In this document: positions 4,076-5,373 of the stretch, piece after piece
How the letters are laid out: the number at the start of each line of letters is the position of its first letter
Numbering within the stretch: position 1 is the stretch's first letter
Source: an uncultured Gemmatimonadales bacterium
GTDB lineage: Bacteria; Gemmatimonadota; Gemmatimonadetes; Gemmatimonadales; GWC2-71-9
Length of the DNA: 64,000 nucleotides
NCBI GenBank assembly: GCA_963771275.1
Contig: CAVYSW010000003.1
Span: forward strand, 832,001 to 896,000
Direction of reading: 5' to 3'
The notes under the pieces: generated by a model
Told to the model about the DNA's origin: nothing
Database searches by the model: none
What the model saw: only the letters and a program-made list of their open reading frames with translations
Translations under genes and position numbers: made by a program

Positions 4076-4216
4076 GCCTAACCGGCGCTTGAAGCTGGCC
4101 GGCCCTTTACGTTCTCGAAGGAAGGGGTCTTTGCTCGCGTGGTAAATGCCTGGGTACGTTCACGCTGCGTTGCTGCTGGCGAGCTAGGGCCGGCAGCTTA
4201 AGCGCAAATCCGTTAG
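4076..4216 (+). repeat. attC site (subfamily B) with an IS110 inserted in the R' box
   Basis: R'' GCCTAAC 4076-4082; GTTAG 4212-4216 continues as GCAGCACGC at 5374. Confidence 0.9.
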
Positions 4217-5172
4217 CAACTGTGTTGAATGCTGGGCGCCGGCACGGCCCAGCGTTGGTTGTCTCGGACCATGGCGTTGAGGACCGTCAGCAGTTTCCGG
4301 GCGCACGCGATCAGCGCGACCTTCTTCGGCTTGCCCGCCGCGATCAAGCGATCGTAGAACACCTTCAGTTGGGGATTCCACCGGCGGCCACAGAGCGCTG
4401 CCAAGTAGAGGGCGGTCCGGACCGGAGCCCGTCCCCCCCAGATCATGCGCTTCCCGCGGAGCGTGCCGCTGTCGCGCGCTAAGGGGGCCACCCCCACCAG
4501 GGTCGCGATCTGCTTGTGCGTGAGGGTGCCGAGCTCGGGCAGCTCGCCGAGCAGGACCGCGCTCACGATGGGGCCGATGCCCGGGACGCTCTGCAGCAGA
4601 TCGTCCTGGGCGCGCCACACGGGGCTGGCTTCGATCTGCGCCGCCAGCTCCCCGGTAACGTCGTCCAGCTGATGCTCCAACCAGCGAATGTGCTGCTGGA
4701 TCCCCCGGTGCAGCGGCCGCGGGGCAAAGCCGAGGCGGTTCTTCTCGGCCACGAGCATCGCGAGCAACTGCCGGCGGCGGGTGAGCAGGGCGTCGAGCAG
4801 CTGGGCCGCCTCGTCGGCCAGGGGCCGCGGCATGGGCCGTACCCGCTCGGCGAACAGCGCCAGGATGGCCGCGTCGATCCGGTCGGTCTTGGCCAACTGG
4901 CCCGTCGCCTTGGCAAAGTCCCGCACCTGGCGAGGGTTCGCCACCACCACCGGGACGCCCGCCGCTGCGAGGGCCGCCACGACCGGGCGCTCGAACCCGC
5001 CGGTCGCCTCACACACGAGCAGGGCGGGCTTCAGCCGCCGCAGCCGCGCCACGAGCTCGGAGATCCCTGACTCGTCGTTGGCGACCTGCCAGGCCTCACC
5101 CGTCGGCCGCCGCGCCACGTCGAGCGTCGCTTTGGCCACGTCCAGCCCCACGAACACCGGCTCGCCACTCAT
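4213..5172 (-). CDS. IS110-family recombinase/transposase
   Basis: [23 protein letters not shown] (DEDD) and [38 protein letters not shown]. Confidence 0.95.
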
Positions 5173-5373
5173 CGCCCCCTCCTCGGAGAACGGCCTCGTC
5201 GCGACCCGACCTTGCCACATGCGGGCTCTCGGCCCCGACCAACTGTTCGGGCTTCCGACGAGTCCTGACGGTGGGCGACGCCCTGGCTAACGGACGGTCT
5301 CGCGGACCCTAGGCAACACGGGCTATCGCCCACCGCAATCTGCTTGCACTTTAGGGAAGAAGCGATATACAAG
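4215..5373 (-). mobile_element. IS110-group (IS621-like) insertion sequence with CT core
   Basis: AG (CT on the element strand) at 4215-4216 and 5372-5373; removal restores GTTAGGCAGCACGC, the complement of the next cassette's GCGTGCTGCCTAAC. Confidence 0.92.
5200..5371 (-). ncRNA. Putative bridge RNA in the IS110 left end
   Basis: Two stem-enclosed internal loops carrying target guides (5311-5319, 5287-5294) and donor guides (5240-5246, 5211-5214); boundaries approximate. Confidence 0.82.

Follow-up and report, generated by a model that had tools for sequence, protein, structure and literature searches.

An IS110-group insertion sequence of the IS621 type with a candidate bridge RNA matching the R' end of integron attC sites in an uncultured Gemmatimonadales bacterium

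Introduction

IS621 and ISCro4 are IS110-group insertion sequences that employ a bridge RNA (PDB 8wt6 and 9t56; PMC11208160, PMC11208158). As described in the accessible parts of PMC11208160, the IS621 RNA uses its left guides for pairing to the bottom strand and its right guides for pairing to the top strand, each including the CT core, and a promoter is rebuilt upon excision. IS110-group elements are recognized by a long non-coding region upstream of the gene and a short or absent 3' region. IS1111-group elements are recognized by sub-terminal inverted repeats of 7-17 bp, for which the accessible parts of PMC11208160 and PMC11187229 state that none occur in the IS110 group.

RNA-guided targeting of integron attC sites was shown for the IS1111-group elements ISKpn4, ISPst6 and ISPa25, in which the seekRNA lies 3' of the gene (PMC11187229, available in part). 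These examples agree with a sequence-only reading made earlier of the locus described here, in which the known attC-targeting insertion sequences had been assigned to the IS1111 group. Elements of this kind carry 11-13-bp sub-terminal inverted repeats and a 3' guide RNA with a reversed order of strand matches (same source), and according to one sentence of PMC3001079 they are located near the 5' end of attC, antisense to the cassettes. No attC targeting by groups other than IS1111 was found in the literature searched, the scope of which ended short of Tetu & Holmes (2008) and Post & Hall (2009).

Group IIC-attC introns are also attC-homing and antisense to the cassettes (PMC3001079, available in part); they are retrohoming ribozymes with a reverse transcriptase, whereas the element described here has a DEDD recombinase and a candidate bridge RNA. 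ISPpu10, an IS110-group element of Pseudomonas putida, is a bridge-RNA element with a natural target beside a stem-loop-forming repeat (bioRxiv 10.64898/2026.03.19.712850, available in part). Its target is an intergenic repeat, that of the present element an attC.

The present element was found in a window of 64,000 nt, the whole stretch of DNA that was analysed (assembly GCA_963771275.1, contig CAVYSW010000003.1, positions 832,001 to 896,000). As far as IS621 and ISCro4 are covered by the sources named above, the features shared with them are a DEDD recombinase of about 320 aa, a candidate guide RNA in the left end with target and donor loops, left guides that read as the top strand and right guides that complement it, the CT core in the target guides, and the logic of the circle junction. 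Unlike them, the element has an attC R' box as natural target, takes its stop codon from the target and shows a consensus structure without a 5' stem-loop. With the IS1111-attC group (ISPa21, ISPst6, ISKpn4, ISPa25) it shares the superfamily and a site- and orientation-specific insertion into attC, which in the available sources is RNA-guided there; in contrast to that group, its candidate guide is 5', no such repeats were seen, and it is inserted in the 3' R' box. Very probably, it is an intact IS621-type insertion sequence of the IS110 group, the 5' end of which encodes a candidate bridge RNA programmed against attC R'. Within the literature searched, targeting of attC is new for the IS110 group, RNA-guided attC targeting itself being known from the IS1111 group, and the likeness to the IS1111-attC elements is a convergence.

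Ends of the element and recombinase

On the minus strand, the left junction consists of the flank GTGCTGC (5380-5374), CT (5373-5372) and the element from 5371 on, beginning with TGTAT. The right junction consists of the element end ACAGTTG (4223-4217), CT (4216-4215) and the flank AACGGA (4214-4209). The target GTGCTGC-CT-AACGGA and the circle junction ACAGTTG-CT-TGTAT that had been proposed from the sequence agree base for base with this strand. Inspection by eye showed that the termini share just ACA/TGT, and of 84 inverted-repeat pairs, the 25 longest included none that joins both termini. Coordinates of all features are compiled in Table 1.

Table 1. Positions of the element, its parts and the surrounding integron features in the window.
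Feature	Position	Strand	Details and basis
Whole IS insertion	4215..5373	minus	1,155-bp IS110-group element 5371..4217 with CT core at each junction (5373-5372, 4216-4215); sequence, same ends in second genomic copy and in L008
Left non-coding end, candidate bridge-RNA gene	5173..5371	minus	199 nt; 23-sequence alignment, consensus fold
-10-like hexamer TAAAGT	5348..5353	minus	putative, by eye; 17 nt after -35-like TTGCTT
Target-binding module	5270..5334	minus	Outer stem 5334-5325 and 5323-5320 with 5283-5270; inner hairpin around 5308-5296
Left target guide GUGUUGCCU	5311..5319	minus	7 nt and core CU; 8/9 identical to left flank and core
Right target guide UCCGUUAG	5287..5294	minus	6 nt and core complement AG; 8/8 complementary to CT-AACGGA
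Donor-binding module	5204..5252	minus	Outer stem 5252-5248 with 5208-5204; inner hairpin 5236-5234 with 5225-5223
Donor guides	left ACAGUUG 5246-5240, right GCAAG 5215-5211	minus	Helices 3 and 4 covary; ACAGTTG = right end
Recombinase gene, 319 aa	4213..5172	minus	likely start ATG 5172, preceded by GAGGAGG 5184-5178; stop TAA 4215-4213
Target attC	4076..4216	+	R'' GCCTAAC 4076-4082; R' GTTAG 4212-4216, continued by GC 5374-5375 beyond the IS
Downstream cassette	5408..6360	+	ORF 5408-6208 (266 aa, no Pfam match), attC 6218-6360; IS in the first bases of the cassette
Upstream intact attC, same cluster	2093..2234	+	attC profile match
IS1111-type element	14583-15942	gene co-directed with cassettes	11-bp sub-terminal repeats, 360-aa recombinase, 200-nt 3' region

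The recombinase ORF continues as far as the right end of the element and closes in the core there, its stop codon TAA taking T from the core and AA from the AAC of the target. A start at ATG 5220, resulting in a 335-aa frame (P0001), was rejected because this frame and the donor module overlap, and because ATG 5172 follows a ribosome-binding site. Two Pfam domains were detected above their cut-offs, DEDD_Tnp_IS110 (PF01548, 2.6e-24) and Transposase_20 (PF02371, 1.4e-18). The closest solved structures were those of ISCro4 (1e-37, 133 bits) and IS621 (2.3e-36, 129 bits), matched over residues 15-319; about one third of the residues are identical in the alignment with ISCro4, as estimated by eye. 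Assignment to the IS110 rather than the IS1111 group was based on the long 5' non-coding region (199 nt), the ORF reaching the right end and the lack of long sub-terminal repeats among the 25 longest pairs. Together with the two domains and the near-full-length structural matches, these properties bear out the IS621-like character that had been claimed for the element.

A -35-like TTGCTT is possible solely at the circle junction, where it would be composed of right-end TTG, core CT and left-end T. Read by eye, the candidate junction promoter (TTGCTT, 17 nt, TAAAGT) has a match of 8/12, and a consensus TAAAnT was present at the same columns in the alignment of the relatives' left ends. When the integrated element was scanned for promoters and terminators, 0 sites were obtained. 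In contigs of four metagenome runs, the element was recovered at an identity of at least 99%, with contigs breaking at its ends, and no junction of right and left end was present in these contigs. A lone 'goes back' joint in the metagenome contigs, leading from 5382 to 4078, was no circle junction.

Target attC site and integron context

The target is a 141-nt imperfect palindrome; its terminal boxes (GCCTAAC...GTTAGGC) have the RYYYAAC...GTTRRRY form expected of an attC, and its ends were paired in a DNA fold (z = -3.9). It was scored with 98.6 bits by nhmmer against a profile of the genome's own attC sites, which had been built from 13 strict matches. On the 5' arm of the + strand, away from the insertion, the hairpin has two bulged bases with a spacing of 6 bp, and the bottom strand on the side of the insertion reads AAC-G. 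Extra-helical bases mark the R''-L'' arm, and AAC-G on the bottom strand is usual for R' (PMC2727003); the box near the element is R' by this definition, because the extra-helical bases are located on the far arm. R' is interrupted by the element at a point with GTTAG on one side and GC on the other, which lies 2-4 bases 3' of the position of integrase crossover (G|TT); the recombinase gene is on the attC bottom strand, antisense to the cassettes. At this point the insertion leaves GTT joined to the remainder of the attC, as the earlier reading had anticipated for GTT.

In the genome, 54 attC-like sites were detected, with 34 at C3:491-24511, nine on C7, nine in the window (2093-21574) and two weak ones elsewhere. 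An integron integrase (TIGR02249, 433 bits versus a cut-off of 265) adjoins the nine C7 sites; for the attC cluster of the window, no integrase was found within the window. The longest ORF was co-oriented with attC in 25/32 intervals of the C3 array, and co-orientation in the C7 intervals (4/8) was uninformative. Pfam matches were obtained for nine + strand cassette ORFs (HicA, ParE, DUF2442, TonB_C, SIMPL and others), one of them below the cut-off, and on the - strand ORFs of the cassette region no match was obtained save the IS recombinase. The placement of the insertion in an attC R' box, also put forward in the earlier reading, is upheld by the 141-nt attC, the bulges on the far arm, the + strand cassettes and the integron integrase in the genome. 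Judged by these features, the 141-nt repeats are real integron attC sites, with recombination by IntI predicted.

Structure of the candidate bridge RNA

Every string named in the sequence-only reading for the stems and loop segments of the two modules was located at the given place on the minus strand. In the stem of the target module, GGTGGGCGA (5334-5326) pairs with TCGCCCACC (5278-5270), and the segments inside it are GTGTTGCCT (5319-5311) and TCCGTTAG (5294-5287). In the donor module, CCCGA (5251-5247) pairs with TCGGG (5209-5205) around ACAGTTG (5246-5240) and CAAG (5214-5211).

An Rfam 15 scan gave no sense-strand family match to the left end, and the structure was therefore tested on relatives. 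The sole Rfam match was sX15 (RF02234) on the opposite strand, with 21.5 bits versus a gathering score of 55. Folding of the single left end gave a z of -2.26; because this is only a modest gain over shuffles, structural support was taken from the alignment of relatives. For this purpose, 55 loci were collected in a scan with one genome per species, and 23 distinct left ends were aligned. The RNAalifold consensus comprised two modules, each with outer stem, internal loop and inner hairpin, and compensatory changes in 19/28 pairs. Three spurious guide-to-guide pairs were dropped, leaving 25 pairs in four helices. In these, changes on both sides were found in 19/25 pairs, and 95.8% of the cells were paired. 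None of 500 shuffles was as high on any measure, and slid partners reached 36-52%. Helix 1 has 14 pairs, 11 of them changed on both sides, and helix 2 has three, of which two were so changed. A conserved 5' stem-loop was absent from the consensus fold of the 23 left ends.

Among the public runs listed, none was an RNA run. Indirect RNA evidence comes from a relative on pXCV183, in which a 70-nt RNA (asX7) was found by Northern blot in 2012 over exactly the corresponding module. The two covarying stem/loop modules and the guide segments, which covary with the flanks as given below, fit the bridge-RNA layout set out in the available parts of PMC11208160 and are in line with the layout claimed earlier.

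Guide segments and flanking sequences

The one position at which the left target guide differs from its flank is occupied by U5316, opposite target C5377; against the bottom strand this position forms a U:G wobble, so that all nine positions can pair. Shuffling of the 199-nt left end (100,000 rounds) reproduced the 8/9 left match in 3,557 cases and the exact 8-mer in 210, with both in the same shuffle in 10 cases, wherever in the sequence the matches fell. The right guide is 8/8 at both genomic copies and in a copy from another assembly (L008). At the second genomic copy (L002) and at L008, the left guide has 6/9 identities, confined to the proximal four bases and the core.

Guides and flanks were compared across the homologous insertions, a covariation test that the earlier reading had called for. 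At non-core positions, identity to the own flank averaged 4.49/7 (37 left junctions) and 4.86/6 (36 right junctions), versus 2.72 and 2.49 for the flanks of other elements. In 20 elements with both flanks, one insertion each, 187/260 non-core positions matched against a permutation mean of 114. For the 12 elements with a CT-AAC target, 53/84 non-core positions of the left guide matched (39.8 permuted), and 27/36 matched at the three variable distal positions of the right guide (16.8 permuted). In each of these three comparisons, 0/20,000 permutations were as high, and guides track their own flanks.

Single elements illustrate this relation. The right guide reads CTAACAGA in L009 with the flank CTAACAGT, CTAACTGA in L021 with the flank CTAACTGT, and CTAACGCA in L022, L023 and L027 with the flank CTAACGCC. 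In a multi-copy Dehalococcoidia relative with the non-attC target CAGGGT-CT-TTCAGT, the right guide is CTTTCAGA and the flank CTTTCAGT. The left guides of L013 and L035 have a 9/9 match. The outermost base of the right guide seldom matches the flank, and the fit between guide and flank was poor on one side in L016, L033 and L034.

In the donor loop, the left guide matches the right end of the element in 7/7 positions, followed by GU and not by the core CU, and pairing of the right guide is limited to 4-5 nt. As read by eye, the donor guides follow an altered right end in L016, L040 and L048, and an altered left end in L032, L034 and L053.

Independent insertions and related elements

The second genomic copy (L002, C3:4585-5743) differs from the window copy by one substitution, as counted by eye, and has the same ends. 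It is inserted in another attC with another downstream cassette, in the same position and orientation. The copy L008, which is 99% identical, occupies a third attC, again after GTTAG, in the same orientation and with the same ends. Thus, three independent insertions are present at one attC position. No two of the four left flanks available, from the window, L002, L008 and the end of one metagenome contig, are alike, as is predicted by transposition of the element itself and not by carriage with a cassette.

The sequence CTAACGGA occurs 48 times in the genome, comprising 38 free attC R' ends, two occupied ones, two copies in the element's own guide DNA and six elsewhere. None of the 48 occurrences is at an R'' end, which reads AAC-CGG. 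The core is preceded by CTGC at 2/2 occupied sites versus 2/38 free R' ends (hypergeometric p ~0.008), and CTGC at the occupied sites fits the left guide with one wobble.

A tree was calculated from 23 recombinases, with L034, L045, L046 and L053 left out on account of translations below 240 aa. A CT-AAC target is found in 15/23 members, all from Gemmatimonadota assemblies except L017, from a bin labelled Thioalkalivibrio. These 15 elements form two supported clades (92/94 and 84/99) on a weak joint branch (62/70), with relatives from Chloroflexota and others that have different targets placed outside the clades. This topology is compatible with one origin of CT-AAC targeting.

Among 23 CT-AAC-type sites, an attC hairpin was present in 13 (11 with paired ends, L011 and L044 with strong arms); three were borderline (L017, L020, L029) and seven had no hairpin. 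As L043 and L044 represent one site, 12 hairpin sites are independent. In every hairpin seen, the bulged bases were on the arm far from the insertion, and the orientation was constant. The first palindrome search demanded a second arm beyond 45 nt, by which short sites were missed, and the second a GTT partner, by which L011 and L044 were missed. With the attC profile of the source genome, sites were detected in only four other loci. More attC-like repeats were found near L013 and L015.

Alternative explanations

That the element is a plain member of the IS1111-attC group (ISPa21, ISPst6, ISKpn4), with a guide 3' of the gene, can practically be discounted. The common superfamily, the attC target and the antisense orientation do recall that group, as far as it is described in the available parts of PMC3001079 and PMC11187229. 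However, the 199-nt non-coding region is located 5' and the ORF reaches the right terminus, and the 25 longest inverted repeats, out of 84, include no terminal pair. The recombinase matched IS621 with 129 bits over nearly the full length, versus 61.8 bits, over the C-terminal part only, for the IS1111-type protein of the window, which stood for the IS1111 side of this comparison in place of named IS1111 sequences. The element encoding that protein has the 11-bp repeats and the 200-nt 3' region of its group, its recombinase is 27% identical to P0001, and it is inserted at an R'' end, the present element at an R' end.

The matching segments might instead be attC-like DNA captured from earlier insertion sites, or chance, rather than RNA guides; both contain attC core letters, the element lives in attC sites, and the single-sequence fold reached a z of only -2.26. 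This reading is very improbable, given a joint chance of 10 in 100,000 shuffles, covarying stems around the segments, the 70-nt RNA over the corresponding module of the pXCV183 relative, and matching segments at the same loop columns in relatives with non-attC targets. Moreover, each segment corresponds to a different strand, with the core common to both, as in IS621 (PMC11208160, available in part), which a captured attC fragment would not do.

More weight, though still little, is given to the view that the short sequence ..GC-CT-AACG.. and not attC is the aim, the link to attC being a by-product of abundance and other sites being used equally. In its favour, seven of the 23 CT-AAC-type sites are without attC hairpin and three borderline, six of the 48 CTAACGGA sites lie outside detected attCs, and the published recognition rule, in the available parts of PMC11208160, is base pairing alone. 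Yet all three insertions of the element itself are in attCs, 13 of the 23 related sites lie in attC-like hairpins with one orientation relative to the extra-helical bases, and L013 and L015 have further attC-like repeats close by. In addition, the stem-loop beside the target of ISPpu10 adds specificity according to the accessible part of bioRxiv 10.64898/2026.03.19.712850, and a contribution of the attC hairpin is therefore possible for the present element. Altogether, equal use of other sites appears improbable.

Proposed mechanism

For the IS621-type element with a bridge RNA programmed against attC R', the following course is proposed by analogy with IS621. The excised circle would rebuild a promoter across the junction, from which the RNA and the recombinase would be expressed, and the recombinase would presumably bind the RNA. 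The donor loop would match the joined element ends ACAGTTG-CT-TGTAT; the target loop matches the attC R' box as read on the bottom strand. There, the left guide is predicted to pair with the complement of ..CTGC-CT, i.e. the last bases of R' and the first bases of the next cassette, and the right guide with CT-AACGGA, i.e. the AAC of R' and the start of the R'-L' spacer. The circle would then recombine at the CT core with any fitting attC end. The right guide would distinguish R' (AAC-GGA) from R'' (AAC-CGG), and the left guide would select among attCs.

The insertion point might moreover have been selected in such a way that the element becomes cassette cargo, IntI moving it together with the downstream cassette; this extension, of which the travel with the cassette was also suggested in the earlier reading as the weak part of its interpretation, is considered unlikely, and the four differing left flanks give no hint of it. 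R'', L'', L' and GTTAG are contiguous, and the right end together with the target would restore a box close to the consensus (bottom strand ..TGCTAAC). Hence the attC might remain a substrate for recombination, and IntI could remove the element with the cassette and integrate both again. If so, a bridge-RNA element would gain a second, integrase-driven route of spread. In the same scenario, the invariant AAC of the target would supply the stop codon, by which the integrity of the gene would be tied to correct insertion.

The element adds an attC-homing lineage in soil and sediment Gemmatimonadota, the members of which may either obstruct the exchange of cassettes or be carried along with it. 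About 15 related pairs of guide and target, with a conserved right and a variable left half, form a natural series in which the extent of left-guide pairing required by a bridge recombinase could be examined.

IS1111-type element of the same cassette cluster

An IS1111-type element was found in the same cassette cluster, side by side with the IS621-type element. Its insertion directly follows R'' of another attC, and the genome has a single copy of it. In its 3' region, GCCAGCTTCGAGC complements the L'' region of attC. A tblastn search with its recombinase against plasmids gave only matches of less than 60% identity among the matches listed (at least 5,000). Both branches of the IS110 superfamily appear to be programmed against integron sites, with guides at opposite ends of the elements and insertions at opposite ends of attC. 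The gene of the IS1111-type element runs with the cassettes, contrary to the antisense orientation published for such elements (PMC3001079, available in part).

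Rfam sX15 and the left ends of IS621-type elements

Comparison with Rfam models identified RF02234 ('sX15', a Xanthomonadaceae sRNA) as the antisense strand of an IS621-type bridge-RNA region. The left end of a Novilysobacter relative was matched with 119 bits on the strand opposite the recombinase gene, and weaker matches, antisense in each case, were obtained for the relatives' loci L034, L028, L016 and L024 and for the main element of the window. On plasmid pXCV183, an IS110-type left end, followed by the beginning of a recombinase gene, is found on the strand opposite sX15. 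A 70-nt RNA complementary to sX15, asX7, was detected by Northern blot in 2012 (PMC3300014). Its span coincides exactly with the target-binding module, and its 5' start corresponds to left-end base 32. asX7 resembles a bridge RNA that has the target loop only (seek-like) and is accompanied by an antisense partner. In the literature searched, no text tying the names sX15 or asX7 to IS110 was found.

Coordinates of features in the window, in relatives and in the source genome
Feature	Location	Strand	Remark
RF02234 match	window 5221-5348	+	antisense to main element
RF02234 match	L053 1306-1463	-	
RF02234 region	L067 (pXCV183, NC_007507.1) 1879-2037	+	
IS1111-type element	window 14583-15942	+	
Sub-terminal repeats TGAAAGCGCGG	window 14590-14600 and 15929-15939		IS1111-type element
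Recombinase of IS1111-type element	window 14659-15738	+	
13-nt segment within the 200-nt 3' region of IS1111-type element	window 15826-15838		13-nt complement of attC L'' region
Multi-copy Dehalococcoidia relative	L024, L025, L036, L037		guides for CAGGGT-CT-TTCAGT
Intact integron integrase	source genome, contig C7:6294-7232	-	outside window
Second integrase-like gene	source genome, contig C3:964508-965328	+	outside window

Targets, cores and stop codons

The insertion site of the Dehalococcoidia relative is the end of an imperfect palindrome 130-190 nt long (CAGGGTCTTTCAG ... CTGAAAGACCCTG). This palindrome belongs to a repeat family other than attC; a hairpin again lies beside the target. 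At loci L018 and L019 the left target guide core is AU instead of CU and the left junction dinucleotide is AT, with CT still present at the right junction. The recombinase gene of the main element does not carry its own stop codon: the TAA (window 4213-4215) arises from the T of the core followed by AA from the AAC of the target. By visual inspection, the stop is formed likewise in the CT-AAC-type relatives whose match extends to residue 335.

Other IS110-family elements of the window

The IS1111-type element is inserted directly past R'' (14574-14580), and the interrupted attC is resumed at 15943. Its gene is co-directional with the cassettes, whereas the published IS1111-attC description gives an antisense orientation (PMC3001079). 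A decayed third IS110-family copy (about 18480-19400, minus strand) lies within the same cassette cluster as the main element; only the DEDD domain was matched (4.1e-10), and CGCTTAGTTGG is present close to both ends.

Integron integrases, cassette contents and CTAACGG outside attCs

The C7 integrase is located upstream of its cassettes and in the same direction ('inverted' layout), and its attC array probably continues across the contig break at the start of C3. The match of the second integrase-like gene is split into two pieces (188 and 151 bits) with overlapping coordinates, which suggests a frameshift. Most CTAACGG matches outside attCs are due to a short tandem motif, CCAWCGG-CTAACGG, found at many chromosomal places (e.g. 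C10:59273-59294, C3:1250438-1250466 and C9:55692-55699). In a Pfam search of the cassette ORFs of C3:654-24391 (L063, L064), the majority had no match; the products assigned comprised the toxin-antitoxin types HicA, ParE, ParE-like and UPF0150-like, as well as DUF2442, DUF4265, DUF6933, SIMPL and a TonB C-terminal domain.
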